Below are positions 12,426-42,169 of a stretch of DNA of 64,000 bases, one piece after another. The DNA is from a virus: the IMG/VR virus record IMGVR_UViG_3300047472_000155, positions 1-64,000 of that record. One strand, given 5' to 3'. Each line of letters opens with the position of its first letter. Position 1 is the stretch's first letter. The notes beneath the pieces are model-generated. The model made no database searches. It was not told the DNA's origin and worked only from the letters and a program-made list of their open reading frames with translations. Both the position numbers and the translations under genes were made by a program.

Positions 12426-12454
12426 ATTATACCATTTTATCTGTCATTTGTCAA
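12426..12454 (-). promoter_or_regulatory. Conserved phage SigA-type promoter
   Basis: TTGACAAATGACAGATAAAATGGTATAAT, identical to the copy at 28182-28210. Confidence 0.85.
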
Positions 12455-13952: not shown

Positions 13953-14528
13953 TCACTCCTGAGAATCTTCTACTCCCATTTCAATCCATTCTTCATCTGA
14001 AAGATCAAGAATTTTTTCAATGTCTCCATTGTCAAATGCTTTTTGAATTTCTTCAACTCTTGCAGCGATTTCCTTATACTTCTCATCAACCCCAGCAATT
14101 GTTTCATTTATTGTGTTAAATATCAAATCTGCTTGATCTTCTGGAAGAGATTCGAGAATTGGTTGCAACAAGTCCATGTTGATCATATTGTTCATAACTA
14201 TAATCTGACTAGGAAGATCAGGAGGAATTTCTGGACCAAATGAAGTGAAGTATTTAATCATCAATAAAATTGAATATGGAATGAATACTTCTTGTAGATC
14301 AATTTCATGTACACTTGCATATTGAACTTGAGACATTAGTTCTGAAACAAGTTTCATAACTTTGGTCTTTTTAAATGTTTCATCTACTTTGAGTGTGAAA
14401 AATTCGTCAAGAGTTGAACTATAAACCTTTACTTCCGATTGAGCATCTAGACTTTTTACTTTTTTATTGACATTTGTCATACTTAACTTTGTGCTGCTTG
14501 ATGTTGTCTTTGCCATTTTATCTTTCAT
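13953..14528 (-). CDS. Hypothetical protein, possible tail assembly chaperone
   Basis: Acidic helical 191 aa between tail tube and tape measure genes. Confidence 0.45.
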   Translation of the reverse strand: MKDKMAKTTSSSTKLSMTNVNKKVKSLDAQSEVKVYSSTLDEFFTLKVDETFKKTKVMKLVSELMSQVQYASVHEIDLQEVFIPYSILLMIKYFTSFGPEIPPDLPSQIIVMNNMINMDLLQPILESLPEDQADLIFNTINETIAGVDEKYKEIAARVEEIQKAFDNGDIEKILDLSDEEWIEMGVEDSQE

Positions 14529-14537
14529 CTCCTTCTT

Positions 14538-14888
14538 TTATTCTAAAACAAAACCTGTAATAACATCGTATCCTTCTTTTTTCAACTTCTTATAGTCAAC
14601 GCCTTCATCAAAAACAATTGGTTTACTTATTCCTCTTACCATCTGACTTTTTTCTCCATAGATGTCTTCATACATAAATTCATCTCTAAAATAATTTACC
14701 AATCCACCATTAGCTATTACAACACCGTACCCAAACTCTTTAGCAAAACGTATTAATGCTGTAGTTTTTCCAATACCACGTAAACCATATACATAAAGAT
14801 TTTCATTTTTTATTGCACCTTCAAGCAATTTTTGATAAACAACTTCCGATGTAGCTCTTATAAATTCCTCTGTTCTAACACTTACCAT
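14538..14888 (-). CDS. Small P-loop-containing protein
   Basis: 116 aa; Walker A-like GLRGIGKTT and Walker B-like IVFDE; own promoter at 14994-15022. Confidence 0.55.
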   Translation of the reverse strand: MVSVRTEEFIRATSEVVYQKLLEGAIKNENLYVYGLRGIGKTTALIRFAKEFGYGVVIANGGLVNYFRDEFMYEDIYGEKSQMVRGISKPIVFDEGVDYKKLKKEGYDVITGFVLE

Positions 14889-28181: not shown

Positions 28182-28210
28182 ATTATACCATTTTATCTGT
28201 CATTTGTCAA
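28182..28210 (-). promoter_or_regulatory. Promoter upstream of packaging/structural operon, with adjacent cre-like box
   Basis: Consensus TTGACA-17-TG-TATAAT; TGTAATCGCTTACA at about 28217-28230. Confidence 0.8.
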
Positions 28211-28456
28211 GTGTTTTGTAATCGCTTACAATAGCTTGTATTTGAATATATTTTAAAATAATAAATAAAAAAATTGCGTCTTATACTCTGTTTACATTTT
28301 TACGTAGGTGAGAAATTTGTACTACTGTCACTTTTTTGGACATTTGTACAAATCTACGTTGTATTCGTTCTCACGCGAACTACTCAATGTAAACATAATA
28401 TAAGACGCAATTCATGTATTGACTTTGGTAGAGTCAATACATATGTTATTTCCCAA

Positions 28457-28528
28457 CGGTTCTTAGGAGAATCGAACTCCTATTTCTGCACTGACAATGC
28501 AGCGTAATAGCCACTATACCAAAGAACC
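28457..28528 (-). tRNA. tRNA-Asp(GTC)
   Basis: Cloverleaf; anticodon arm CTGCA-TTGTCAG-TGCAG. Confidence 0.9.
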
Positions 28529-28533
28529 ATATA

Positions 28534-28605
28534 CGCACCTACCAAGATTCGAACTTGGACTAGAGGATTAGAAGTCCACTGTGATATCCTTTTCACTATA
28601 GGCGC
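28534..28605 (-). tRNA. tRNA-Arg(TCT)
   Basis: Cloverleaf; GTGGA-CTTCTAA-TCCTC. Confidence 0.9.
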
Positions 28606-28611
28606 AAATTA

Positions 28612-28726
28612 AGCGGAAACTAGGAATCGAACCTAGATCATGTTTGGTATCGTGTAAATGGGTGCTGCCGCTACCCACTATACCACGCCCCTGGAGGGGG
28701 ATGTCCTGCCATTAGACGATTTCCGC
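28612..28726 (-). tRNA. Atypical tRNA-Gly-like RNA with ~45-nt extra arm
   Basis: Acceptor GCGGAAA/TTTCCGC plus U73; normal D and T arms; distorted CCCC-CTCCA-GGGG arm; long inserted hairpin. Confidence 0.7.
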
Positions 28727-28731
28727 ATATA

Positions 28732-28806
28732 TACGCAGTGTGAGAATCGAACTCAACCAATAGTGGCATATAAGACCACCTCCACCCACCAGATGGAATA
28801 CTGCGC
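28732..28806 (-). tRNA. tRNA-Ile(TAT)
   Basis: GTGGT-CTTATAT-GCCAC; acceptor GCGCAGT/ACTGCGT, A73. Confidence 0.75.
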
Positions 28807-28816
28807 AAATTTAAAA

Positions 28817-28889
28817 TGGACTCTAGTGGACTTGAACCACTGACCTCTTGCGTTTCAAACAAGCGCTCTACCAACTGAGCTAAAAGTCC
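28817..28889 (-). tRNA. tRNA-Phe(GAA)
   Basis: Cloverleaf; CTTGT-TTGAAAC-GCAAG. Confidence 0.9.
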
Positions 28890-28895
28890 ATAGAA

Positions 28896-28977
28896 TGAGG
28901 GAAATAGGATTCGAACCTACTAAGCCGAAGCAACAGATTTACAGTCTGCCCCAGATCTCCAACTCTGGTGTTCCCCC
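28896..28977 (-). tRNA. tRNA-Tyr(GTA)
   Basis: GCAGA-CTGTAAA-TCTGT with class II variable arm. Confidence 0.9.
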
Positions 28978-29007
28978 GTAGTAGCTGAACAAGTCAGCTA
29001 ATTTTAA

Positions 29008-29292
29008 TCATTTCCAATAATATGTTTTGTACCAATAACGCATTGCTTGATGGAAAGGTCTGTCTTTAATCCATAACCAACGATGTACATCATGTCGATG
29101 TTCCCATCGTTTAAGGAAACTTTTTTTGCTTTGTGTGTACTTAAAATCAGAGATGTCATATGAATTATAAAACTTACGATATGCCTTACCATTTGGAACA
29201 TCTTTACTTCTTCTTACCTTGTGATTGGCAAACTTTTTGCCTCCCACTCTTCGATCCTTTACAATAGGTGTCTTCTTGAAACTTCTACTCAT
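29008..29292 (-). CDS. Basic, aromatic-rich hypothetical protein
   Basis: 94 aa MSRSFKKTP..., RBS AAGGAG; promoter at 29370-29398. Confidence 0.7.
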   Translation of the reverse strand: MSRSFKKTPIVKDRRVGGKKFANHKVRRSKDVPNGKAYRKFYNSYDISDFKYTQSKKSFLKRWEHRHDVHRWLWIKDRPFHQAMRYWYKTYYWK

Positions 29293-29416
29293 ATTCTACA
29301 ACTCCTTTCGGTAATTATAGAACGTTAAATGAAATTTTCATTTCCTCACCTCTTCTTGACTATAATAGTATTATATCATTTTATATTTAATTTGTCAAGC
29401 TTTTTCTTTAATAAAA

Positions 29417-29489
29417 TAGGACTACTGAGATTCGAACTCAGAATGACGGATTAAAAGTCCGCTGTGATAAACCATTTCACCATAATCCC
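29417..29489 (-). tRNA. tRNA-Lys(TTT)
   Basis: GCGGA-CTTTTAA-TCCGT. Confidence 0.9.
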
Positions 29490-29492
29490 ATA

Positions 29493-29602
29493 TGGTAGTA
29501 GGTTCAGGTCTCGACCCTGCTTCTCTTTGTCAACTTTTACACTCTCATCTAGAATTGAACATAGAGTATTGACAAGTGTTTTATCCGATAAACTAACCTA
29601 CT
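29493..29602 (-). ncRNA. tRNA-like RNA with anticodon loop replaced by an extended hairpin
   Basis: Acceptor AGTAGGT/ACCTACT plus encoded ACCA; D arm GTTT/AAAC; T arm CAGG-GTCGAGA-CCTG; ~35 extra nt in the anticodon arm. Confidence 0.7.
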
Positions 29603-29957
29603 ATAACTTTTGGTTCCTCAACGGAGAACCACTCCGATCCTTTTTTTAAGATTTAGGATGAAACTTAAAACAAGCAACAATAGGTGTGACCTACTAAGAA
29701 TGAAGAAGTGACACGCAAAGCGTTTGTCTGCATCTTTTAATCATTCTCAAACTCATAGTTAGAAGCTTGATATTAATTTTATGTTATACTTGTTAATAAA
29801 TGAGAGAGGGGAAAGGAAATCGTTTCCCTTCTGAGAGGAGGGAACCCCTCTCTCATTTCACCACCGGAATGTGATTATTGAAATAGTCATTGACTACTAT
29901 CTCAACTAAAATAAATATTATCACATTTCTTTTCTATTGTAAACACATTTTTTTAAT

Positions 29958-30031
29958 TGGCAGAGGACTTGAGACTTGAACTCAAACTAGAAGGATCAAA
30001 ACCTTCTGTGCTACCTTTACACCAATCCCCG
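29958..30031 (-). tRNA. tRNA-Gln(TTG)
   Basis: GAAGG-TTTTGAT-CCTTC; encoded CCA. Confidence 0.9.
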
Positions 30032-30039
30032 ATATTAAG

Positions 30040-30115
30040 CGCCCCAAGTTGGACTGGAACCAACAAGCTCTCCCCGCTAATGGGAAGCGACTTTACCATC
30101 TTTGTCTATTGAGGC
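30040..30115 (-). tRNA. Atypical tRNA, undetermined anticodon (8-nt loop CATTAGCG)
   Basis: Acceptor GCCTCAA/TTGGGGC, D and T stems intact; T loop TTCCAGT; stem CTTCC/GGGAG. Confidence 0.6.
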
Positions 30116-30117
30116 GA

Positions 30118-30194
30118 TGGCTCAGACTATTGGACTTGCACCAATGTCATCTCCTCATGCGGGAGATTATTCTAGCTAGTTGAACTAAGTCTGA
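30118..30194 (-). tRNA. Atypical tRNA with 6-bp anticodon stem and CAT-centred loop
   Basis: Acceptor TCAGACT/AGTCTGA plus GCCA; ATCTCC-CGCATGA-GGAGAT; T loop TGCAAGT. Confidence 0.6.
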
Positions 30195-30198
30195 AAAG

Positions 30199-30270
30199 CT
30201 TACTCGATGGGAATCGGACCCATGACAACGTACTTAACAGGTACGCGCTCTACCATTGAGCTACGAGCAA
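30199..30270 (-). tRNA. tRNA-Asn(GTT)
   Basis: CGTAC-CTGTTAA-GTACG; G73. Confidence 0.9.
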
Positions 30271-30281
30271 GATAATAAAAA

Positions 30282-30353
30282 CAGAGAAGGTAGGATTCGA
30301 ACCTACGGTGCATCGGGTAACAACCGAACGCCTTACCACTTGGCTACAACTCT
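30282..30353 (-). tRNA. tRNA-Asn(GTT), second divergent copy
   Basis: TTCGG-TTGTTAC-CCGAT; two T-T mismatches in the acceptor stem. Confidence 0.7.
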
Positions 30354-30362
30354 ATAATACAA

Positions 30363-30452
30363 AGGAGATGACAGGATTCGAACCTGCACATCGGTTCATC
30401 ACCGACTTAAACGCTTTTCAAGAGCGTCCCAATACCGTTCTGACACATCTCC
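30363..30452 (-). tRNA. tRNA-Ser(TGA)
   Basis: ACGCT-CTTGAAA-AGCGT; long variable arm. Confidence 0.9.
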
Positions 30453-30461
30453 AAAAATCTA

Positions 30462-30546
30462 AGGAAGGTAAGGGAATCGAACCCTTGTAGCCGTTAAGCC
30501 AGCCTTGGTTTAGCAAACCAGCACATTACCACTCTGTCAACCTTCC
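30462..30546 (-). tRNA. tRNA-Ser(GCT)
   Basis: CTGGT-TTGCTAA-ACCAA; long variable arm. Confidence 0.9.
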
Positions 30547-30558
30547 ATTTAATTCATA

Positions 30559-30717
30559 TTAAATTTCCAACAATTCTTCAATTCTATTTGACACTTTTTT
30601 AATTCTTTCCTTATTTTCCGAATTATTAAAATTAGTATCGCTAATAATCAATTGCAAAAGATTACTTTGGTAATCTAAAAGCTGAGTTATTGTCTTATTT
30701 TTTTCATAAAAGTCCAT
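30559..30717 (-). CDS. Small hypothetical protein (52 aa)
   Basis: Below track cutoff; MDFYEKNKTITQLLDYQSNLL...; RBS AGGAGA. Confidence 0.55.
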   Translation of the reverse strand: MDFYEKNKTITQLLDYQSNLLQLIISDTNFNNSENKERIKKVSNRIEELLEI

Positions 30718-30741
30718 TTATACATTCTCCTTTTCATAATT

Positions 30742-30987
30742 TTATTCGAATGTTAATTCCTCAATTGAACTTCTTACATTTGGATAGGTTATTTCTCCAA
30801 CACAAAATCCAAAAGGATCAATTGTAGTCCATTGAATAACGATTCCATTGTCATTAAACTCCTTGATAAACCCTTTGTTGACGAATGGATTTCTCTCTTG
30901 TGGAAACGTAAGAGTAAATGATCTTCCTTTATAAAAGTTCTCTTCTTGTTCTGAAATTTTGTTAAAAGCTTCCATCATTAAAATCAT
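30742..30987 (-). CDS. Hypothetical protein
   Basis: RBS GGGAGG; true start probably a few codons in. Confidence 0.6.
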   Translation of the reverse strand: MILMMEAFNKISEQEENFYKGRSFTLTFPQERNPFVNKGFIKEFNDNGIVIQWTTIDPFGFCVGEITYPNVRSSIEELTFE

Positions 30988-31022
30988 CCTCCCATAGATA
31001 AAACATTTATTTTATCTTATGC

Positions 31023-31244
31023 TTATGCCTCCAATTCCGCAATCAATTCTCCATAAGCACGTTTATACATTTGAAGAGAATCAACAATTTCTTCTGCTTC
31101 AAGTTGTTCTTCTTCAATAAATTCTTCATTAAGAATGTCACATACAATTGATGCGAAAGCAAAGTCAATTCCTGAAAGACTTCTATCATTTCCTGCAATC
31201 TCAAGAATTGCATCTTTAAAAGCTTGAGTGTCAAAATTTTCCAT
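31023..31244 (-). CDS. Acidic hypothetical protein
   Basis: 73 aa; RBS AAGGTG. Confidence 0.6.
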   Translation of the reverse strand: MENFDTQAFKDAILEIAGNDRSLSGIDFAFASIVCDILNEEFIEEEQLEAEEIVDSLQMYKRAYGELIAELEA

Positions 31245-31275
31245 TGAAGATCACCTTTTTCTCATTTGATTTTTA

Positions 31276-31346
31276 ACGGCAGAGTGAGAATCGAACTCAC
31301 GATTGCAACTTTGCAGGTTGCCGCCTTACCACTTGACCATCAGCCG
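31276..31346 (-). tRNA. tRNA-Cys(GCA)
   Basis: GCAAC-CTGCAAA-GTTGC; U73. Confidence 0.9.
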
Positions 31347-31400
31347 AAGTGTTTGATCTATAGTACTCATTATACCATTTTATCTTTCATTTGTCAACAG

Positions 31401-31616
31401 TTATTTTTTAACTTGCCGAAGCTTATAAAGTTTCTCTACTTGAGAATATACGGTATGATGACTTATAGAAAAATTCCATCTAGTCATTTCATTTAATATT
31501 TGTTCATCAGTAGGGTAAGCCTTAAACTCTTCCTTGCTATAAACATCAGTAAACTGTCCACTTTTCACTTCAAGTAATCTTGTTTTAATTATAAACAAAG
31601 TTTCTAAATCTTTCAA
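31401..31616 (-). CDS. Hypothetical protein
   Basis: 71 aa; RBS AAGGAG; promoter at 31642-31670. Confidence 0.6.
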   Translation of the reverse strand: MKDLETLFIIKTRLLEVKSGQFTDVYSKEEFKAYPTDEQILNEMTRWNFSISHHTVYSQVEKLYKLRQVKK

Positions 31617-31779
31617 TTCATCATCTCCTTAACATGTTGCTATTGTAACACTTTATCTTCCATTTGTCAAGTATTATTTGAGGAGGGTTGATTATTCGTC
31701 AATCCTCCTCCTTGGTCGGTGCGCGGATTGCGGACATGATACATGCGTTCCTTACAAAATACATCATATCATATTATGA

Positions 31780-32280
31780 TTAAATTGTCAATAGTTTTAC
31801 ACAATTATCTTTTAAACTCTCACGAACATCAATTATTCTTTGATTTTTACTTCCTCTAAATAGAAGTGTTGTGTCTTTTTCTTCTATTATAAATCTACCA
31901 TCAATAAGTACATCACACATCACAAGTAGCTCTTTCAAATTCTTGTTCTTTACAATTTCTTCGTACGTATATCCACTATACGCCCAAACATTTACATTTG
32001 GTATATGATATTTGCAAAGTTTTAAGAATAATACAACCTCTCTAACAGAAAAGAATGGATCGCCACCACACAGAGTTATTCCGTCAATTAAAGGATTATT
32101 TTTGATATCATCAATAATCTCTAATTGTCTATTGTAAGTAAATTCTTCACCATACTTGAAATCCCAAGCTGCTTCATTGAAACAACCTGGGCAAGCATGT
32201 TTACATCCACTTATAAATAATACAGAACGTAATCCGTGTCCTTCATTAATACTCTCTTTATAATATCCTGAAAGGTACAC
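31780..32280 (-). CDS. nrdG: Anaerobic ribonucleotide reductase activase (radical SAM)
   Basis: GCKHACPGCFN, GITLCGGDP, FRGSKNQR; start re-called at GTG 32280 behind RBS AGGAGA. Confidence 0.95.
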   Translation of the reverse strand: MYLSGYYKESINEGHGLRSVLFISGCKHACPGCFNEAAWDFKYGEEFTYNRQLEIIDDIKNNPLIDGITLCGGDPFFSVREVVLFLKLCKYHIPNVNVWAYSGYTYEEIVKNKNLKELLVMCDVLIDGRFIIEEKDTTLLFRGSKNQRIIDVRESLKDNCVKLLTI

Positions 32281-32296
32281 AAATTCATCTCCTAAT

Positions 32297-34159
32297 TTAA
32301 TTTGTTGAGTGTTTGACTCTATCTCTTTCTTCTGCACGTTTTCCAGAATTGAACCTAGTAAGCAGATTGCCAACCAGATAGCCTGTGATGCGTCTAATTT
32401 TGACGATACGACCACCTGACTCTAACTCTCCACACTGTGGACACGACTCCCCTATGACTCCGTCATAGCCGCAGGAATTGCACTTGTCAATTGGATGGTT
32501 AATGCTGAAATACCCTACATTATTTTTTAATGCAAATTGAACAATTTTTTTAAATGCATCTGGATTGTTTTTCATATTTCCATCAACTTCTACATAACAT
32601 ATATGTCCTGCGTTTGTGAGTTCATGGAAAGGAGCTTCTAATTCTATTTTCTTATGCGCTTGTATTTGATAGTATACAGGAATATGATTAGAATTTGTAA
32701 TATATTCTCTATCAGTTACTCCATCAATAATTCCATACTCTTTCTGATTCATTTTAGCAAACTTACCAGCTAACGACTCCGCAGGAGTTGCAAACAACGT
32801 AATGTTTGAATCTAAATCTTCTGACCACGTGTCACAAAAATCACGCATAAACTTGATGATATCATATCCAATTTTCCAAGCTTCTTCATCTTCTCCGTGA
32901 TGCTTTCCTACAAGCGCCTTAAGGCACTCTGCAAGACCAACAAAGCCAATAGACAAACTACCATGCTTTAATATATCTCCAACTTTCTCTTCTGGATCAA
33001 GCTTTTCTCCATCCATCCATGTCCCATTAGCCATCATAAAATCACTTGCTTTTGCAGGCTGATTTTTTTGAATTCTATATCTATGAACAAGTCCTTCAAG
33101 ACATATCAACATAACTTCTTCAAGCTTATTATAGAAATACTCAATGTCACCCTTAGATTCAATCCCAATCTTTGGTAAATTAATGCTATTAAAACTAAGA
33201 TTTCCCCTACCTGACTGATGGTTGTCACCATGTCTATTTGAAATTACTCTTGTACGACATCCCATTGTGCCAATAATTGTGTCAGGGTCTTCTTCTTTGT
33301 AGTATTGAAGATTGTATGTTGCATCAACATTTACAAAGTTAGGGAACAAACGTTTGCTTGAACATTCTACAGCTTTCTGGAATAAATCGTAATTTACTTC
33401 TCCTTCGTTCTGATTAATTCCTTGCTTGCATTGAAAAATCAATTGAGGGAATATTGCCGTTTCACCATGACCCAATCCATTGATTGAAGCTTGTAGAATT
33501 GACTCACTAACAAGTCTTCCTTCCCATGATGTACACACACCAAAACAAATACTTGAGAATGGAACCTGTCCACCTGCACGTGAAGCCATTGTGTTGAGAT
33601 TGTGAATCATACTTTCCGCAGCTTGAAGTGTTTCATTTTTCGTTTCTTTCATAGCAAATAACTCCGCACTTGCATGAGTACCTTTGAAATATTCAAGACC
33701 TTTTTTGTAATGTTTGTTGTACGATTTCTTAACATATGGAGCCAAATCCCAATCAATCTTACTTGCACCACATCCACCATATTGTGAGTTTTGTTGTGCT
33801 TGAAATATAATTGCCACTTGTGCCATTGCTGTAGAAATACTGTTTGGGGTACGAACACTACCTTTATCCCCTACTGTAAAGCCACTTGCCAATATTTTTT
33901 CGAAAGGTATAAAGATACAATTATGCGTTCCAAGTGCATAAAAATCTAAATCATGAATATGCATATATCCCTGCTTCATATATTCCATAATAAATTCTGG
34001 AATAATATATTTCATTGCATACTCTTTACACGCTTCGCTTCCCATTTTTCCCATTTTACCGCTAAATGATTCGCCATTAACATTCGCATTCTCTCTAATA
34101 ATATCAAGATTTTGAGTGTCAATAACATCTTTGCCAAGTTTCAAAAATGTGTCTGTCAT
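32297..34159 (-). CDS. nrdD: Class III anaerobic ribonucleoside-triphosphate reductase
   Basis: HIHDLD, MGCRT, TPAESL, CxxC...CxxC and glycyl-radical RRITGYL; start re-called at ATG 34159. Confidence 0.95.
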   Translation of the reverse strand: MTDTFLKLGKDVIDTQNLDIIRENANVNGESFSGKMGKMGSEACKEYAMKYIIPEFIMEYMKQGYMHIHDLDFYALGTHNCIFIPFEKILASGFTVGDKGSVRTPNSISTAMAQVAIIFQAQQNSQYGGCGASKIDWDLAPYVKKSYNKHYKKGLEYFKGTHASAELFAMKETKNETLQAAESMIHNLNTMASRAGGQVPFSSICFGVCTSWEGRLVSESILQASINGLGHGETAIFPQLIFQCKQGINQNEGEVNYDLFQKAVECSSKRLFPNFVNVDATYNLQYYKEEDPDTIIGTMGCRTRVISNRHGDNHQSGRGNLSFNSINLPKIGIESKGDIEYFYNKLEEVMLICLEGLVHRYRIQKNQPAKASDFMMANGTWMDGEKLDPEEKVGDILKHGSLSIGFVGLAECLKALVGKHHGEDEEAWKIGYDIIKFMRDFCDTWSEDLDSNITLFATPAESLAGKFAKMNQKEYGIIDGVTDREYITNSNHIPVYYQIQAHKKIELEAPFHELTNAGHICYVEVDGNMKNNPDAFKKIVQFALKNNVGYFSINHPIDKCNSCGYDGVIGESCPQCGELESGGRIVKIRRITGYLVGNLLTRFNSGKRAEERDRVKHSTN

Positions 34160-34218
34160 GTGAATCTCTCCTTTAAATAAGTATTCCCCCATCCTTATAT
34201 AAGGTGGGGGAATCTCAA

Positions 34219-34290
34219 AGCGGATAACGAGACTCGAACTCGCAACCTTTTGGGTGGAAGCCAAACGCTCTACCATTGAGCTATATCCGC
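34219..34290 (-). tRNA. tRNA-Gly(TCC)
   Basis: TTTGG-CTTCCAC-CCAAA; GCG/CGC acceptor, U73. Confidence 0.92.
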
Positions 34291-34326
34291 ATATGAAAGC
34301 CCTAATTAAAGGGCTATTTGTATTTA

Positions 34327-34677
34327 TTATTCATTACCTTTTATTCCATAAGCTTTATGAATTGCAATATTTATTACTCTTTGTGCCTTCATAAGATAAT
34401 GATCTACTCTCGCACCTTCATTATCACCATACATAAGACGCATAAGTAAATACAACTCTGGATAACATGATCTCCAATTCCATTTCTCAATTTCTAGATA
34501 CCTATATTCATATCCAAAATATTCCTTAGCTAATTCAATTTCACTAGTAGTTAAAGTCATATTTTTTTTGATATGATCATAAGAATGATTTAATATTGTT
34601 TCAATTTCATTTTGATACGCCTTAAAACGCTTTTGATCTTCAATCATTAAACGTCCAATATCAAACAGTTCAATCAT
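34327..34677 (-). CDS. Hypothetical protein
   Basis: 116 aa; frame stays open ~46 codons upstream with no canonical start, so the N-terminus is uncertain. Confidence 0.55.
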   Translation of the reverse strand: MIELFDIGRLMIEDQKRFKAYQNEIETILNHSYDHIKKNMTLTTSEIELAKEYFGYEYRYLEIEKWNWRSCYPELYLLMRLMYGDNEGARVDHYLMKAQRVINIAIHKAYGIKGNE

Positions 34678-34832
34678 TATATCTTTTCTAATTTTTCCCA
34701 GCGCTTCCCACTCATTGTCTCCGTAATGCTTAAAATAGCTTACCTCTACACTCTCACTCTTCCTCTTTAATCTGATTAAAGGACGTTTATTTTTTACGTA
34801 GATAACATCCTCATCTCACTAAAAACTACGTA

Positions 34833-34906
34833 TTGCTGCGCCTTAGAATCGAACTAAGTTAACAAGGCTTATGAGACCTCACCGGATATCCAACCCGCCG
34901 CCAGCT
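34833..34906 (-). tRNA. tRNA-Met(CAT), initiator-like
   Basis: GAGGT-CTCATAA-GCCTT; unpaired first position and bulged acceptor stem. Confidence 0.7.
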
Positions 34907-34913
34907 ATAAGTA

Positions 34914-34985
34914 TAGGGATAAGGAGAATCGAACTCCTGTCTAGTCCTTATCAGAGACTAATAATAACCACTATAAGATATCCCA
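34914..34985 (-). tRNA. tRNA-Ile(GAT)
   Basis: AGTCT-CTGATAA-GGACT. Confidence 0.85.
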
Positions 34986-34990
34986 TCATT

Positions 34991-35078
34991 TGGTGGCAAG
35001 GGATGGAATTTAACCACCTAAGATTGTAAATCACTCCCGTTACATGGGAGCGCGACTCATCATCTTCGCCGCCTTGCC
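34991..35078 (-). tRNA. tRNA-Tyr(GTA), second divergent copy
   Basis: CTCCC-ATGTAAC-GGGAG; variable arm; T loop TTAAATT; encoded CCA. Confidence 0.75.
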
Positions 35079-35087
35079 ATATTATAA

Positions 35088-35327
35088 TTAACTTTCTATT
35101 ACTTTCCAATCTTCAAGTTTAAGGTCTTCATCAATCAACAGAAACATTGGCATGTCGTTATTAGTAAACTCAACGATTATCAATTTTCCTTTTTCATATT
35201 CTGGACATTTGTTAGGATCATTGTACGTTTCCTCTGCAAGACATACACGATACTTACCACCATAACTTAGCGAATCACCAATATACTCGATTCTCATTCC
35301 TTCTTTTACATTAGAAACGTTCAACAT
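35088..35327 (-). CDS. Hypothetical protein
   Basis: 79 aa; RBS AGGAGA. Confidence 0.6.
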   Translation of the reverse strand: MLNVSNVKEGMRIEYIGDSLSYGGKYRVCLAEETYNDPNKCPEYEKGKLIIVEFTNNDMPMFLLIDEDLKLEDWKVIES

Positions 35328-35347
35328 GTTATGATCTCTCCTAAAGA

Positions 35348-35623
35348 TTAAATTGAAACTACACCTTCATCGTATCCAAATAAATAATACTCGCTACCGT
35401 TTGAAGTAAAATCAAGACGATAGTCACCTTGGCGATAACTAAATTCAATTTCTCCAAACCCATCAAGAATAAATTCTTCTGTGTTTATTGCTTGTTGATC
35501 TAAATCGTCTACACGTAAAATTGTTGTATTATTTCTTAAATCAGTAATCAAGTAGTATGTCTGTGGATTTGATGCAAAGAATCCTTCTAAAGCTTGCAAC
35601 AATGTAATGTCTTGATCCATCAT
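35348..35623 (-). CDS. Acidic hypothetical protein
   Basis: 91 aa; RBS GGAGGT. Confidence 0.6.
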   Translation of the reverse strand: MMDQDITLLQALEGFFASNPQTYYLITDLRNNTTILRVDDLDQQAINTEEFILDGFGEIEFSYRQGDYRLDFTSNGSEYYLFGYDEGVVSI

Positions 35624-35631
35624 TTTACCTC

Positions 35632-35850
35632 CTAAAGTTTTTGTCTTCGTAAACTCTCAACAGAACAGTATTCTTCGTATTCTTCTTCGCCAATATTTAC
35701 AACAACCATAATGTCAACACTTCCATTTTCATTGTATGTTGCATTTGAAATGTACACATTTTCTGGCTTTAACTTTAAACCATTCTCATTGGCATTGATC
35801 TTTTTCAAGATTGTTTCTTTGTCAATGAAAACTTTAACATGTCTTAACAT
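35632..35850 (-). CDS. Hypothetical protein
   Basis: 72 aa; RBS AGGAGGT. Confidence 0.6.
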   Translation of the reverse strand: MLRHVKVFIDKETILKKINANENGLKLKPENVYISNATYNENGSVDIMVVVNIGEEEYEEYCSVESLRRQKL

Positions 35851-35880
35851 GATTTACCTCCTTTTATTATTAAAGAGATT

Positions 35881-35979
35881 AGGTGACGGAAGGAATTGAA
35901 CCTCCAAACTACTCTACCTGAGTTGTTAGCGGATTTGAACCGCCGTGTTCGTGTGCACCGAACTGCAACCAGCATCACC
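35881..35979 (-). tRNA. Atypical 99-nt tRNA (CAA loop, enlarged D region and variable arm)
   Basis: Acceptor GGTGATG/CGTCACC, U73; GGCGG-TTCAAAT-CCGCT; T arm GGAGG-TTCAATT-CCTTC. Confidence 0.65.
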
Positions 35980-35985
35980 ATGATA

Positions 35986-36059
35986 TGCGTCAGACAGGAC
36001 TCGAACCTGCAAGATTTGCGTTCTTAGCGCAAAATGTTTGCCAATTACATCACTGACGC
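35986..36059 (-). tRNA. tRNA-Leu(AAG), short variable loop
   Basis: TTGCG-CTAAGAA-CGCAA; A73. Confidence 0.8.
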
Positions 36060-36091
36060 AAAATGTAGTCTTTCGACTACTAAAATTCATT

Positions 36092-36661
36092 TTATCTTAC
36101 ATTTGCATAACTTATAAAGTTTCTAATTTTTGAAATTGTAGTAGTACCAACACCATACTCTTTTGCCAAAGATATTCCTGTTTTCATTGAATTTCTGATG
36201 TATCTAATATCTTCTTCTGAGAACATTTTATTATGATCAGCGTCACTTTTTCTTTCTAATGATTGATAATCTATATCAGACAATATATGTTTCCATTTTT
36301 TGCCACTCCAAATATTCTTTATAGTACCTCTATCTACTCCAAATATTTTTGAAAGCTCTGTTGGAGAATTTGTAGTATTCATTCTTATACTTATTACACT
36401 TTCTTCGTCAAGCTTCGATCTTCCATTATTTATACCAATTGCACTTCTTCCTCTAGAAACTCTATCCATAACATTGTCTTGATGTGTACCAGTTTCTAGA
36501 TGATTTGGATTAATGCAGAATGAATTGTCGCACTTGTGACGAATTACAAGACCATCTTCTATCTTGTTGCCACTAAATAATTCATATATATACCTATGCA
36601 TTATTAATTGGACACCATTTCTCTCTACTTTGTAACCATGTCTCTTTTTTGCATGAGACAC
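36092..36661 (-). CDS. HNH homing endonuclease with C-terminal HTH repeats
   Basis: HRYIYE, IRHKCDNSFCINPNHLETGTHQDN, GINNGRSKL. Confidence 0.9.
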   Translation of the reverse strand: MSHAKKRHGYKVERNGVQLIMHRYIYELFSGNKIEDGLVIRHKCDNSFCINPNHLETGTHQDNVMDRVSRGRSAIGINNGRSKLDEESVISIRMNTTNSPTELSKIFGVDRGTIKNIWSGKKWKHILSDIDYQSLERKSDADHNKMFSEEDIRYIRNSMKTGISLAKEYGVGTTTISKIRNFISYANVR

Positions 36662-36822
36662 ACAAACCCAACATTCATTTTCAACTTCATATTCAATCTT
36701 TCTTGCTCTTGGAGATAGTCTTTAATAGTAAATATTTCTTTCACATAACTTTTCCTCTCTAAAAATTGATTAATAGAGAATTTTTGTTGGGAGTTTACCC
36801 CAATCATGCGTGAAAAATTCTA

Positions 36823-36904
36823 TACTGGCGAGGAGACTCGAACTCCCAATCCCGAAGGCTGCGCATTTTAAGTGCGCAATGTATGCCAATTCCATCACAC
36901 CAGC
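36823..36904 (-). tRNA. tRNA-Leu(TAA)
   Basis: GCGCA-CTTAAAA-TGCGC; variable arm. Confidence 0.9.
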
Positions 36905-36910
36905 AAAATA

Positions 36911-36988
36911 TCTGAACGGCTGGATTTGAACCAGCGTAAGCTCCTCCTTCCAAGGGAGGCGAGATAAGCCAAACTCCTCTACGTCCAG
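36911..36988 (-). tRNA. tRNA-Pro(TGG)
   Basis: CCTCC-CTTGGAA-GGAGG. Confidence 0.9.
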
Positions 36989-37044
36989 TTAATAAAAAGT
37001 GTACGTTACTTTTCGATTTGTTGTTTACGTACAAACAGTCCCAA

Positions 37045-37115
37045 TAGCGTGTACGGGGATCGAACCCGTGATACCGTATAGAAAGTACGGAGTCTTACCA
37101 CTTGACCAACACGCC
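37045..37115 (-). tRNA. tRNA-Glu(TTC)
   Basis: CCGTA-CTTTCTA-TACGG. Confidence 0.9.
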
Positions 37116-37171
37116 ATATTGAATAGGTTTTTTCTTCGAAAGGGAAAACCATCTAACCCTTGCACAGCGCT

Positions 37172-37419
37172 ATGCGTTTATGGAAAACTCGAAACCTTTG
37201 CATCTTATGGTAATGCAATAACCCCTCTACACATGTGGAATTGTAGTCAACCTCTGCGATCTTGGGAAGTGCAGTCACACCACTACTCTTATGGCAATAG
37301 TAGCAAACCCTACATATATGGAATGTAGCGAACCTCTAGTCTTGTGGCTGAGAACTAGTAGACCTCTTACTTTCTGGATAGTAAAGTAAACCTTGCATTT
37401 TTATGGATCTGCATAAACC
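37172..37419 (-). repeat. Tandem array of 8-9 diverged ~28-nt hairpin/pseudoknot units
   Basis: Each unit on the minus strand is GGT(T)-N2-5-stem-loop containing CCA-stem; stems differ between units but each pairs. Confidence 0.75.
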
Positions 37420-37421
37420 AA

Positions 37422-37492
37422 AGCCCTGTGACAGAATTGAACTATCGTTTGCGGGTTACAAAACCGCCGTTCTACCATTAAACTAAAAGGGC
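37422..37492 (-). tRNA. tRNA-Thr(TGT)
   Basis: GCGGT-TTTGTAA-CCCGC. Confidence 0.85.
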
Positions 37493-37500
37493 ATATAAAG

Positions 37501-37586
37501 GGTGCATAACAGGACTTGAACCTGCAAGAAGAGTACTCTTCACGAAGTTCACAGCTTCGCGCGTTTACCATTTCGCCATACACACC
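37501..37586 (-). tRNA. tRNA-His(GTG) with long variable arm
   Basis: G-1:C73 pair; CGAAG-CTGTGAA-CTTCG; extra arm GAAGA-GTAC-TCTTC. Confidence 0.85.
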
Positions 37587-37598
37587 ATATTACTTATT

Positions 37599-37808
37599 TT
37601 AAAATCGCTCACATTCAACCAATACATCATGTTCAGCAATATCAAAAATGAATTTATTAATTTCATAGAATACCTTAACAACATAATTCTGAATTCCATA
37701 TGAATCAAGTTCTGGAATTACTGCAACTATTTCACAAACAACATCAACGTCATCCATATACGACTTGAATTTTTCTCCAATTTCAAATACTTCAATCACT
37801 ACATACAC
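37599..37808 (-). CDS. Hypothetical protein
   Basis: 69 aa; RBS GAGGTG suggests a start slightly downstream. Confidence 0.5.
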   Translation of the reverse strand: MYVVIEVFEIGEKFKSYMDDVDVVCEIVAVIPELDSYGIQNYVVKVFYEINKFIFDIAEHDVLVECERF

Positions 37809-37837
37809 CTCTTTTAAATTGTAGTTAAATAATATAA

Positions 37838-38193
37838 TATTTCCAACATGTCAGCCACGTACAAACCATCAAGGGCAATTTACAACTCCCTATTAAACTA
37901 AACCGTGGATTTTATCGAATTGGCTAGTTAGGACTTATCTTGCCTAACTTCTTAGCCATGAAAATTGCACCTTCACCTTTGACTCTGCGTCTCTGGCAGA
38001 ATAAGAGTCTTGAGTCGTGACAATTGAATGCTTTGAGCGTTGAGTCTTGAACTTTATATCCAATTTGTATAATTTGATATATCGTATCAAATAATCTTAT
38101 ATTTGCTCCTATAGCAAGGAATTGTATTAACAATGTTAACCCACATTGTAAGAAAGGTGTAAGAGTTCAATGGTTTTCGACATATTGGAAATA
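37838..38193 (-). ncRNA. Candidate structured RNA closed by a 15-bp terminal helix, with internal heptamer repeats
   Basis: 37838-37852 and 38179-38193 are inverted repeats (14/15, the exception G-U on minus); seven A..TC units at 38005-38055. Confidence 0.6.
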
Positions 38194-38246
38194 GGTAGTT
38201 TTATTTATTTAAGGTGCATGATCTACCAAACAAACACATCATCATA

Positions 38247-38897
38247 CTATTCCGAAACTTCAATCGTTGTTACAACATTACTTGTAGACAAGATGAAGTC
38301 ACATTCGTTTTCAAATTCTTCAATCTCGGATGTCAATTTTTCAATCAATTCTTTAAGACCTACTGGATCAATAAGTTTTGGCTTATTGTCTTTACTGAAA
38401 TTCTTTGTGATTTCCTGAATTTCAATATCTCTTCCATCTCTCTTACCATCTTTACCAAGATTGAGAATTGTTTCAATACGATGATTTAGTGCTGATTCAT
38501 AGCTGTTATTGCTATTCTCAAGAGAATTTAATACCTTGTTGTGTTGGTACTTAAGTGTGCTAAGATATGTTTTATCGTAAGAGATTGAAGTTTTACGTTC
38601 AATAACTTCTGCAACTGTATATTCTTTTCCGCTAGGGAACGTAACTACAGTAATGGCATTTGATGCAACAATTTTAGATTTAATCTCATTTCTACGTGCA
38701 ATGAGAGAATTGATCTTGTCAACAGATGCTTTCGCACTTGTCTCATATTGTTCTACTGTGATGTGACCACCAATAAGCTTGTCGCCAGTTTGAATCGTAG
38801 TCAACTGTGCCTCATTGATTGCTCTTGTAATTCTAGCATCCAACAATTTAAGTTCATTTAAAGCCCTGGTAATTGAGTAACTAATAGTCATTTGCAC
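38247..38897 (-). CDS. Coiled-coil protein, DIP1984-like family
   Basis: SITRALNELKLLDARI, IVASNAIT...YTVAEVIE, LIDP, LSTSNVVTTIEV. Confidence 0.6.
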   Translation of the reverse strand: MQMTISYSITRALNELKLLDARITRAINEAQLTTIQTGDKLIGGHITVEQYETSAKASVDKINSLIARRNEIKSKIVASNAITVVTFPSGKEYTVAEVIERKTSISYDKTYLSTLKYQHNKVLNSLENSNNSYESALNHRIETILNLGKDGKRDGRDIEIQEITKNFSKDNKPKLIDPVGLKELIEKLTSEIEEFENECDFILSTSNVVTTIEVSE

Positions 38898-39089
38898 ATT
38901 CTCCTTTTTCCCTTTGAATTTGTTTTATCTTTGATTTATATATTGTATCAAAAAACTCAACGATACTAACGAGGCTGGTAGGGGATTAACATCGTCAAGT
39001 TTTTTCATACAACATCTCGTTCTCAACTCTACTTCTATAGTATATCATTTTATCTTTCATTTGTCAAGTACTTTTTAAAATTATTTAAT

Positions 39090-39173
39090 TGGCAAAGGAG
39101 GGGAGAATCGAACTCCTTGGGAACGGTTTTGGAGACCGCCTTATTACCTCTCCAATTTAACCCTCTCTCCCTC
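39090..39173 (-). tRNA. tRNA-Trp(CCA) with unpaired, enlarged D region
   Basis: GCGGT-CTCCAAA-ACCGT; G73 plus CCA; own promoter at 39183-39211. Confidence 0.75.
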
Positions 39174-39231
39174 ATGTTCTTTATTATACCATTTTATCTT
39201 GTATTTGTCAAGCACTATTTTTTTACTCTTT

Positions 39232-39649: not shown

Positions 39650-40843
39650 TTACAAGTCGGCAAATACCTTAGAGGACTCAGAACGAATATCTTCTTGAAG
39701 ACACATAATACCAACTAATGGATTACCTTTAAGTCCTTCAATAGCTGCTATAAGACCGTTATTATGTGTATATTTGTCTTCTGCTTGATTAATATCTCCA
39801 CTAAATACTACACACGCATTCTTGCCCAAACGTGTACCGATAAGCTTGATAGTTTTCTTGTCAAGGTCTTCCGCTTCATCTACAAGAATAAATGTGTCAG
39901 AGATAGATAATCCTTTCATAAACCAAGGAATCTCTTTCTTAATCTTATTATTTTGTTGCATTGCTGCCAATTCAAACTCTCCACCATTAAGATGCTGAAT
40001 GATTGGTCTAAAAAAGTCTGCTGTTTTTTCGTCTTTACTACCAGGTAAGAACCCAATTTCTTCTCCACCAGCTCCAGACGGATTACGTACCATCATCAAC
40101 GAACTATACTTCTTCTTACTATTAGAGCCATTTACAAATTCAAGAGCAGTCTTAACAGCAAGATACGTTTTACCGCTTCCATAAGTTCCTGTAATGATCT
40201 TAATAGGGATATCTTTATCCCAAAGCAAGTCTAATGCACATGCTTGATGTGCATTTTGAGCAGTAACAACACGTTCAGGTGGAAGGTCTATATCTACTAG
40301 AAACTCTCCATTCCAACGTGCACAATGGAATTCCCCATTAAAGTCAATGATAAGATATTCATTTATCAACAGCTCAAACATATTGGTATTGTCTTCGTAA
40401 ATTTCAGCAAGTTCTTCATCATTGTCAACTTTGATTTCTTTGAACCCTTGGTATGAAGTGTCTTTTGATTTATCTTCATCAGCTTCAATTAATTCAATTC
40501 CATATCCTTCTGCCTTGAATTGTAATAGAATATCATTTGTAATCAATCCATAATCCTTTTCAAGACAAGCTTTAATAATCATGTTGTCAACGTAAGTGTT
40601 TTCATATGGGTCTTCGGCATTCCATGTGTAATCCGAAAGATCAAAATGAATTAGATCATTTTCTTTTCTTTCTTTAATCCATCTTACAGCCTTTCTTGCT
40701 TTGAATGCCAAATCTCTCTTTTCTCTATTGCCCTTATGTTTCTCCAATTCTCTTAATACATGAGATAAAATTACAATCTCCTTATTCTCAAGTAATCCAA
40801 GATCATCCAGCAGGGTATTGGTATCCACCACAAATTTTGTCAT
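39650..40843 (-). CDS. phoH: PIN-PhoH family protein
   Basis: PIN motifs VVDTN and LITND; P-loop GTYGSGKT; IGFLPGS, ILVDEAE, GDINQ. Confidence 0.9.
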   Translation of the reverse strand: MTKFVVDTNTLLDDLGLLENKEIVILSHVLRELEKHKGNREKRDLAFKARKAVRWIKERKENDLIHFDLSDYTWNAEDPYENTYVDNMIIKACLEKDYGLITNDILLQFKAEGYGIELIEADEDKSKDTSYQGFKEIKVDNDEELAEIYEDNTNMFELLINEYLIIDFNGEFHCARWNGEFLVDIDLPPERVVTAQNAHQACALDLLWDKDIPIKIITGTYGSGKTYLAVKTALEFVNGSNSKKKYSSLMMVRNPSGAGGEEIGFLPGSKDEKTADFFRPIIQHLNGGEFELAAMQQNNKIKKEIPWFMKGLSISDTFILVDEAEDLDKKTIKLIGTRLGKNACVVFSGDINQAEDKYTHNNGLIAAIEGLKGNPLVGIMCLQEDIRSESSKVFADL

Positions 40844-41839: not shown

Positions 41840-42169
41840 GTTGCGTTCCTTCCTTACATTAGTAATTATACCATTTTATCTTTCATTTGTCAAGCATTTT
41901 TTATTACTGATCTTTCTGAGCATTGAATGTTTCTCCTTAACATGTTACTATTATACCACTTTATAATGCCTTTGTCAAGCATTATTTTTAATATTCTGTT
42001 TTCAAGGAACAATATACTATAGTTATATAGGAAAGTCTTTGGACCGCTTGGTCTTTTGTAGCTCCTTGTAAATAAGGACTTTTATTTCTTTCCCTTAACT
42101 AACTATAGTATACCATTTTATCTTTCGTTTGTCAACAGTTATTTTTATAGGACTCTAAAATCATCCCGA

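Follow-up and report, generated by a model that had tools for sequence, protein, structure and literature searches.

Do tRNA genes with rebuilt arms serve a phage in translation, do they engage enzymes that attack or sense tRNA, or are they debris? The question is raised by an array of 28 tRNA-shaped genes in the IMG/VR virus record IMGVR_UViG_3300047472_000155, a record of 166,838 nucleotides (nt) that is rated complete and whose first 64 kilobases (kb; positions 1 to 64,000) are here called the window. All 28 genes lie on the minus strand between 28456 and 39173, and the tRNAs of the whole genome sit there. The array is syntenic in a sister phage, IMGVR_UViG_3300042923_000502 (L033), and comparison of the two reveals structure-preserving selection on the atypical genes that they share. 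The array is best read as a mixed one, in which ordinary tRNAs stand beside remodelled tRNAs that work in translation and tRNA-like elements that do not decode; this reading is given a probability of about 0.6. About 16 of the genes would be ordinary tRNAs, and about eight would decode with a non-standard architecture kept by the lineage: His, Leu(AAG), Ile(UAU), two Tyr bodies, Trp, Leu(CAA), and a tRNA with the anticodon CAU.

Detection and composition of the array

ARAGORN in its default mode reports 22 tRNAs, all on the minus strand, from 28456 to 39171. The Rfam model RF00005, whose gathering score of 29 bits served as the criterion for a canonical tRNA, recovers 19 elements, among them His, Leu(AAG), and the element labeled X1 in Table 1; X2 to X10 fall below that score. 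At the ps90 setting ARAGORN adds 30118-30194 (X6), 34835-34903 (X7), and 35880-35971 (X9), on the same strand and in gaps between other tRNAs, and since the same setting yields 0 matches in the other 154.8 kb of the genome these three elements are not noise. Calls at ps80 were not accepted by themselves, because about 0.34 matches per kb arise there by chance; X8 is detected only at ps80, and its sister-phage counterpart is called as tRNA-Tyr(GTA). X4 appears only with the ARAGORN intron option (-i). With X1, contributed by RF00005, these elements make up the 28 tRNA-shaped genes that had been counted from the sequence at the outset (the original prediction).

The anticodons represent 18 amino acids (Asp, Arg, Gly, Ile, Phe, Tyr, Lys, Gln, Leu, Met-type CAU, Asn, Ser, Cys, Pro, Glu, Thr, His, and Trp), and no Ala or Val anticodon occurs among the 28 genes, in agreement with the original prediction. 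That prediction also described about seven genes as structurally remodelled. The remodelling is evident, and the number is too low: 10 to 12 members are atypical, namely X1 to X10 plus His and Leu(AAG). The further claim that several atypical genes, and few canonical ones, encode CCA withstands counting. CCA is encoded only by X4, X6, X8, X10 (Trp), and Gln, which amounts to 4/10 atypical genes and 1/18 others (one-sided Fisher p = 0.04), and the encoded-CCA state, that of Gln included, is kept in L033.

Structural conservation in a sister phage

L033 is the one close relative compared; its anaerobic ribonucleotide reductase, NrdD, is 89% identical to that of the window locally and 85% over its full length. 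Further NrdD relatives, at 75-91% identity, are encoded on Logan contigs (P0002-P0007). Four-fold degenerate sites in 11 genes shared with L033 are mostly 52-62% identical, with about 55% in the genes that have most such sites, and neutral sites are therefore near saturation. Identity of the atypical genes to their L033 counterparts is 97% for X2, 77% for X8, 76% for X7, 75% for X6, 69% for X3, 66% for His, and 61% for Leu(AAG).

Base pairing was followed by reading the ARAGORN drawing of each window gene on its L033 counterpart, or, for X7 and X8, the L033 cloverleaf on the window. The shared atypical genes have 61 changed stem pairs, of which 45 still pair, 34 of them through two-sided compensatory substitution. 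Random letters would be expected to pair at a rate of about 0.375, and the probability of so high a retention is then 9e-9; canonical genes retain 73/108 changed pairs. The remaining, seemingly broken pairs are mostly alignment slips in very divergent genes. Because retention matches that of the canonical genes and exceeds random expectation where silent sites are only about 55% identical, the shared atypical genes evolve like functional tRNAs, under selection that preserves their structure. The earlier proposal that retained pairing reflects selection rather than decay thus holds for X2, X3, X6, X8, His, and Leu(AAG), and in part for X7.

All elements but X1, X4, X5, and X6 have an anticodon loop of 7 nt in which U occupies position 33 and a purine position 37. 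Identity elements are found at the acceptor end: G-1/C73 in His, A73 in Leu(AAG), both Tyr genes, and Ile, and G73 in Trp. The anticodons of the array, those of the atypical genes included, match the codons that the phage uses heavily (CTT 34% and TTG 26% of Leu codons; ATA 25% of Ile codons; AGA 56%, GGA 48%, ACA 50%, and CCA 53%). Taken together, the 7-nt loops, the acceptor-end identity elements, and the match of anticodons to preferred codons indicate that the atypical genes are probably working adaptors rather than decoys. Of the functions put forward in the original prediction (decoys, ligands of T-box leaders or Rel, and non-ribosomal aminoacyl donors), none gained direct support.

The His gene combines a GUG anticodon with G-1 opposite C73 in both phages, and its hairpin variable arm measures 17 nt in the window and 16 nt in L033, with a different stem sequence; nine two-sided compensatory pairs distinguish the two copies. 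Leu(AAG) is class I in both phages and shows 10 compensatory pairs. Its A73, and a D arm that is 90% identical to the D arm of the class II Leu(UAA), imply that it derives from a genuine Leu tRNA. The variable-arm class differs between the sister phages at two other loci: the syntenic Leu(UAA) is class II in the window and class I, with a 4-nt variable loop, in L033, and Asn copy 2 has a short variable loop in the window and a 14-nt variable arm in L033. The idea that a class I Leu tRNA escapes Schlafen nucleases was rejected, since the bacterial Schlafen is reported to cleave the anticodon stem without preference for the variable arm and only human SLFN11 prefers type II tRNAs.

Infernal gives X2, which carries an Ile anticodon, a better alignment with the architecture of tRNA-Sec than with that of tRNAs in general. 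The acceptor stem of X2 has 8 base pairs (bp), its D and anticodon stems 6 bp each, and its T stem 4 bp; its variable loop measures about 6 nt, and position 73 is A. The L033 copy is identical at 75/77 positions, and the two differences constitute a single compensatory swap from C-G to U-A. The likeness to tRNA-Sec is limited to stem lengths: no element has the RF01852 score of at least 47 bits, the UCA anticodon, and the long variable arm of a tRNA-Sec (X2 scores 32.4, X3 34, X10 22.6, and X9 21.4 bits), and X9 and X10 were discarded as tRNA-Sec-like because their alignments contain many mismatches. A 12-bp acceptor branch split 8/4 or 9/3 is present in X2 only (eight standard acceptor pairs and a 4-bp T stem by Infernal). 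X3 and X10, which had also been considered as 8/4 tRNAs, are on inspection both 7/5 or 7/4.

X3 and X8, and their L033 orthologs, all display the G1-C72 pair, A73, GUA anticodon, and class II variable arm of a bacterial tRNA-Tyr. The X3 ortholog differs by 8-9 compensatory pairs. X8 folds into a clean cloverleaf with a hairpin variable arm and an encoded CCA, and its ortholog shows four compensatory pairs and a variable-arm hairpin swapped for another hairpin. X8 lacks G18G19 and C56, and its T loop reads TTAAATT. Both elbow contacts (G18G19 and T54-psi55-C56) are absent in X6 as well as X8, and all other window tRNAs have both. Joint loss recurs in L033, in X6 and in the Phe (14811-14884) and Trp (2680-2753) genes, which lack G18G19 and have odd T loops (TGCGTTA in Phe). 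Since an abnormal T loop accompanies nearly every loss of G18G19, the exception being the L033 ortholog of X8, the pattern suggests that both sides of the elbow contact are abandoned together. Of the other atypical genes, X7 keeps its CAU anticodon in L033, with three compensatory pairs in the anticodon stem; the place of X10 is taken there by a different Trp gene with CCA, at 40% identity; and X9 was not found in that phage.

Searches beyond L033 returned little. Megablast matched the array to none of 50,697 phage records, a more distant blastn gave generic tRNA similarity only, scans of IMG/VR for the exact patterns of X2 and X6 returned the one sister phage only, and a 27-mer from Ile(GAU), which is 100% conserved, found nothing in JGI metagenomes or GTDB genomes. 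Relatives reached through a 216-amino-acid (aa) protein, at 30-38% identity, are too distant for gene-by-gene comparison. Odd tRNAs occur in them too: a 90-nt "Asn" (L010 9957-10046), a 96-nt "Ile(tat)" (L006 6223-6318), and class I "Leu(caa)" genes of 76-77 nt (L002 16609-16684 and L009 11757-11833). Those whose structures were drawn all encode CCA.

Several points weigh against the reading of the atypical genes as conserved working tRNAs. The covariation rests on two sequences per gene, and X1, X4, X5, and X9 have no L033 counterpart, so that selection is deduced for the shared genes only. The acceptor stem of X7 is poorly paired in both phages, with a mismatch or bulge. In the L033 Thr gene (4320-4395) a 5-nt insertion creates a 12-nt loop while the remainder is nearly identical, which demonstrates that members of the array do lose decoding ability. 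L033 also has a private tRNA-like element of 108 nt (14046-14153), without CCA, and these private oddities show that members are gained, lost, and disabled fast. The codon match was established against the phage's own codon usage. Finally, a five-gene RNA-repair operon elsewhere in the genome fits the idea of pressure from tRNA-targeting defenses, for which it is circumstantial evidence only.

Elements without a usable anticodon

X6 has a U1-A72 pair, G73, an encoded CCA, and a T loop of sequence TGCAAGT, and it lacks G18G19. Its anticodon arm consists of a 6-bp stem and a 7-nt loop, CGCATGA, that contains CAU preceded by G33. The acceptor, D, and T arms together with CCA are identical to L033 at 50/53 positions, as against 10/27 in the anticodon arm (Fisher p = 6e-8), and the L033 loop is a different one, of 6 to 8 nt and rich in U. 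This disparity argues that X6 is selected on its acceptor/T half only, and it is the strongest hint in the array of a non-decoding function. Searched with a covariance model of X6, 30 distant relatives yielded no homolog to add to those of the two sister phages. The notion that the conserved 3' half is a phage attachment core taken from a host tRNA was rejected, since a T loop of TGCAAGT does not resemble that of a host and the 5' half is itself conserved and paired with the 3' half.

The other three elements are private to the window. X1 has G1-C72, C2-G71, G3-C70, and U73, with some 59 nt in place of the 15-nt anticodon region of the model and a distorted arm, CCCC-CTCCA-GGGG; its makeup resembles a pair of tRNA 5' halves attached to a single 3' half. 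X4 has a 7-bp acceptor stem and a T-like arm (loop GTCGAGA), with a helix of about 48 nt where the anticodon arm should be. Without an L033 counterpart, and with a fold z of only -1.85, it is the weakest member of the array. X5 would read CTA, which makes up 7% of Leu codons. X1, X4, and X5 show complete pairing in the acceptor and T stems; neither an L033 counterpart nor a paralog was found for any of them, and they could be relics. An A-rich hairpin motif, AAAAAAGGATCGGAGTGGyTCTCCGTTGAG, lies upstream of Lys in both phages (window ~29612-29641 (-), L033 ~14180-14210); in the window X4 separates it from the Lys gene.

It is conceivable, if unlikely, that X1, X4, X5, X6, X7, and perhaps X9 are pseudogenes or recombination chimeras left by an array that turns over rapidly and harbors a homing endonuclease. 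Recent origin would explain why their stems still pair; so would the harmless excision from polycistronic transcripts that a tRNA-like top half permits. The composite build of X1, the absence of X1, X4, X5, and X9 from L033, the private element and enlarged Thr loop of that phage, the rarity of the codon that X5 would read, and the HNH endonuclease gene within the array are all in keeping with this idea. Decay does not explain why the top half of X6 has stayed nearly invariant where silent sites are about 55% identical, and the intact acceptor and T stems of X1, X4, and X5 also speak against it. Nor can it apply to X2, X3, X8, His, and Leu(AAG), whose stems have evolved by compensatory change.

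An alternative that seems rather less probable still is that X6, X4, X1, X5, and perhaps the duplicate Tyr and Asn genes act as decoys or sponges, titrating tRNA-targeting effectors (anticodon nucleases, nucleases of the acceptor end or 3' tail, and toxins acting on charged tRNA) or occupying tRNA-binding sensors. The constraint on X6, confined to its acceptor/T half and CCA with an anticodon arm free to vary, would suit such a role, as would the preference for CCA in the atypical members and the conservation of that state in L033. Many defenses that cleave tRNA are known (PMC13056530, PMC12445682, PMC12851939), and the RNA-repair operon suggests that damage to tRNA is a real pressure. The counter-measures documented in phages are, however, the replacement or overexpression of functional tRNAs and not decoys (PMC11555353, PMC11464382); the covariance model of X6 found no homolog beyond the two sister phages, and X1, X4, and X5 are confined to one genome. 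A decoy function is possible mainly for X6, the best candidate among X1, X4, X5, and X6.

A broader proposal, and a doubtful one, is that the remodelling of whole arms amounts to systematic camouflage against tRNA-targeting immunity. Variable-arm class switching (His, Leu, Asn), joint loss of the elbow, and the tRNA-Sec-like form of Ile(UAU) would then disguise tRNAs whose synthetase identity is kept, with minihelix-CCA RNAs of the X6 type serving as dedicated non-decoding decoys or as substrates for the repair and CCA enzymes of the phage itself.

Non-translational roles, as aminoacyl donors in the manner of the staphylococcal cell-wall tRNA-Gly or as ligands of T-box leaders or stringent factors, are highly improbable: X1 does retain Gly acceptor determinants, X6 ends in the U1-A72/G73 of Gln or Asn type, several members are without the G18G19/C56 elbow, and irregular tRNAs that are charged yet untranslated have been reported (PMC5389517), but T-box stem I binds the very elbow that these RNAs have lost, and no Fem-type transferase, T-box leader, or Rel-related gene lies beside the array, the whole genome not having been searched for them.

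Genomic setting and relation to known systems

The closest cellular homolog of NrdD is from Paenibacillus (about 66% identity), and by that measure the phage probably infects Bacillales. Genes for NrdD and NrdG, a gene for an HNH homing endonuclease, and several small genes without Pfam matches break up the array. The endonuclease gene lies between Leu(UAA) and Leu(AAG), a place where L033 has none. A gene that joins a PIN domain to a PhoH-like ATPase is the immediate upstream neighbor of the array. The window holds 11 copies of a 29-nt promoter family, every one on the minus strand, where 0 are expected; its members combine TTGACA and TATAAT, 17 nt apart, with an extended -10 (TG), and the family sequence is TTGACAAAT..ATAAAATGrTATAaT.

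Two further stretches deserve mention. Between Thr and Glu (37120-37420 (-)) are 8 or 9 tandem mini-hairpins of about 28 nt each, with CCA in the loop and AGGTT linkers, of which the last ~95 nt alone align to L033 (86%). Downstream of the gene for the 216-aa protein, a gene-free stretch of about 390 nt (37850-38240 (-); L033 3576-4020) is highly conserved in both phages and is probably a structured RNA.

Outside the window lies a contiguous operon for RNA repair (Table 1), with genes for an Rnl1-like ligase, PNK-HD (polynucleotide kinase and HD phosphoesterase), a radical-SAM enzyme, an Rnl2-like ligase, and a CCA-adding enzyme. The sister phage also has Rnl1 and CCA-adding enzyme genes.

Table 1. 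Positions of array members, predicted promoters, and neighboring genes (window coordinates except where a record is named)
Feature	Position (strand)	Basis
PIN domain fused to PhoH-like ATPase	39650..40843 (-)
Consensus promoter (predicted), ahead of X10	39183..39211 (-)	12/12 consensus; X10 start ~10 nt after
X10 tRNA-Trp(CCA anticodon), G73, encoded CCA, enlarged D region	39090..39173 (-)	ARAGORN; no RF00005 match
tRNA-His(GUG), G-1/C73, 17-nt hairpin variable arm	37500..37586 (-)	RF00005 52.7 bits
tRNA-Thr(UGU), canonical	37422..37492 (-)	RF00005 56.7 bits
tRNA-Glu(UUC), canonical	37044..37116 (-)	ARAGORN, RF00005
tRNA-Pro(UGG), 7-nt variable loop	36911..36988 (-)	ARAGORN, RF00005; 87% identical to L033
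tRNA-Leu(UAA), class II, 13-nt variable arm	36822..36905 (-)	ARAGORN, RF00005
HNH homing-endonuclease gene	36092..36661 (-)	PF13392
tRNA-Leu(AAG), class I, 5-nt variable loop, A73, Leu-type D arm	35985..36060 (-)	RF00005 58.5 bits
X9 Leu(CAA)-type class II tRNA-like, extra-long D hairpin (5 bp/7 nt), U73	35881..35979 (-)	ARAGORN ps90, fold
X8 second tRNA-Tyr(GUA), encoded CCA	34991..35078 (-)	Fold z = -4.1, L033 ortholog
tRNA-Ile(GAU), 6-bp anticodon stem, 3-nt variable loop	34914..34985 (-)	RF00005 49.3 bits; 72/72 identical in L033
X7 CAU-anticodon tRNA, weak acceptor stem, reduced D arm	34835..34904 (-)	ARAGORN ps90
tRNA-Gly(UCC), canonical	34219..34290 (-)	RF00005 75.9 bits
Consensus promoter (predicted), ahead of Cys and Ser-to-Gln block	31369..31397 (-)	12/12 consensus
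tRNA-Cys(GCA), canonical, behind consensus promoter	31276..31346 (-)	ARAGORN, RF00005
tRNA-Ser(GCU)	30462..30546 (-)	ARAGORN, RF00005
tRNA-Ser(UGA)	30363..30452 (-)	ARAGORN, RF00005
tRNA-Asn(GUU) copy 2, two U-U acceptor mismatches	30281..30354 (-)	ARAGORN, RF00005
tRNA-Asn(GUU) copy 1	30198..30270 (-)	ARAGORN, RF00005
X6 tRNA-like RNA, encoded CCA	30118..30194 (-)	ARAGORN ps90
X5 tRNA-like, 6- or 8-nt anticodon loop (CATTAGCG), T loop TTCCAGT, G73	30039..30115 (-)	ARAGORN; no Rfam match
tRNA-Gln(UUG), encoded CCA	29958..30031 (-)	RF00005 45.9 bits
X4 110-nt tRNA-like, A73, CCA	29493..29602 (-)	ARAGORN -i only; fold z = -1.85
tRNA-Lys(UUU)	29416..29490 (-)	ARAGORN, RF00005
Consensus promoter (predicted), ahead of 94-aa gene and Tyr-to-Asp block	29370..29398 (-)	12/12 consensus
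X3 tRNA-Tyr(GUA), class II, C8	28896..28977 (-)	ARAGORN; below RF00005 threshold; tRNA-Sec 34 bits
tRNA-Phe(GAA), canonical in window	28816..28890 (-)	RF00005 71 bits
X2 tRNA-Ile(UAU), tRNA-Sec-like architecture	28731..28807 (-)	ARAGORN; RF00005 below threshold; RF01852 alignment 32.4 bits
X1 115-nt Gly-type tRNA-like	28612..28726 (-)	RF00005 39.5 bits with 59-nt insert; fold z = -3.1
tRNA-Arg(UCU)	28533..28606 (-)	ARAGORN, RF00005
tRNA-Asp(GUC)	28456..28529 (-)	ARAGORN, RF00005
Other promoter copies	12426-12454, 28182-28210, 41865-41893 (-)	Examples of 11 sites
Five-gene RNA-repair operon, outside the window	G000 91072-96559 (+) = L035 3073-8560

The favored reading of a mixed array can be cast as a working scheme, in which expression, charging, and any link to defense are projected from the sequence. 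Several promoters of the consensus family would drive the array, and the transcripts would then be processed. In Bacillales, tRNA genes that lack CCA depend on RNase Z and the CCA enzyme for maturation, and those that encode CCA on exonucleases. Host synthetases would charge the remodelled tRNAs through the acceptor-end and anticodon identity elements that these retain, and the charged tRNAs would supply the A/U-ending codons preferred by the AT-rich genes of the phage, lessening its reliance on the host pool. The remodelled tRNAs would thus be replacements, not decoys, and would confer independence from host tRNAs that defenses may destroy, in a lineage that also invests in tRNA healing, sealing, and CCA repair. 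X1, X4, X5, and X6 keep the acceptor/T minihelix that is recognized by RNase P, by RNase Z or 3' exonucleases, and by the CCA enzyme, and they are probably processed into stable RNAs; X1, X4, and X5 may be young products of recombination.

Phage T4 offers a possible parallel for these last elements. Its tRNA cluster includes two small stable RNAs, species 1 and 2, of 110-140 nt, whose function is unknown and which are co-transcribed and processed like tRNAs. X1, X4, and the 108-nt element of L033 resemble them; X4 encodes CCA, and homology is not claimed.

Irregular tRNAs have been described in phage and bacterial polycistrons, including (8/4) tRNA-Ser, (8/4) tRNA-His, and allo-tRNAs (Mukai et al., PMC5389517). 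The present array resembles that group in placing cloverleaves that depart from the 7/5 form in a tRNA cluster of an uncultured phage, X2 with its 8-bp acceptor and 4-bp T stem being the example. Allo-tRNAs combine a long variable arm with G73 and serine identity. In X2 the variable loop is short, position 73 is A, and the anticodon is that for Ile; lacking the long arm and the serine identity, X2 is not a member of the allo-tRNA group. The His gene likewise differs from the reported (8/4) tRNA-His, which lacks G-1, in being 7/5 with G-1/C73 and a long variable arm.

Phage tRNAs are known to replace host tRNAs that defense nucleases have cleaved, as T5 tRNA-Tyr does against the PtuAB of retron-Eco7, T5 tRNA-Lys against PARIS, and mycobacteriophage tRNAs likewise (PMC11555353, PMC11464382, PMC10264068). 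Those that evade nucleases differ from the host cognate in the anticodon loop, at positions that the nuclease recognizes, and resist cleavage (PMC10264068). Phage tRNA arrays are accordingly recognized as counter-measures to tRNA-cleaving immunity, with anticodon-loop point changes or overexpression as the adaptations documented so far. The present phage shares with the replacement phages a large clustered tRNA set, strong promoters, tRNAs that are off-standard, and a T4-like heal-and-seal module in the same genome. It departs from them in the scale of the change, since whole arms are remodelled here (variable-arm class, elbow, D stem).

In variable-arm class the closest likenesses lie farther afield. 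Leu(AAG), and Leu(UAA) of L033, lack the long variable arm, as do the class I tRNA-Leu of animal mitochondria, and His, with Asn of L033, bears the hairpin variable arm of the class II tRNAs for Ser, Leu, and Tyr (PMC7609411). In the open literature, searches turned up neither a tRNA-His whose variable arm is long nor a phage tRNA-Leu of class I, which is absence of evidence only. X6 provides a clean test case for a tRNA-like RNA selected solely for its acceptor/T half. If the remodelled tRNAs are charged and used, they would define the structural freedom that bacterial synthetases, EF-Tu, and the ribosome tolerate, and would offer natural scaffolds for the engineering of orthogonal tRNAs. Unlike the mitochondrial and class II examples, these architectures are found in a bacterial phage; in bacteria, tRNA-Leu normally belongs to class II and tRNA-His to class I. 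The phage keeps a class-II-like His, a class I Leu, and a tRNA-Sec-shaped Ile under measurable purifying selection, and architectures of this rule-breaking kind switch between sister phages, to the extent that orthologous genes differ in class.

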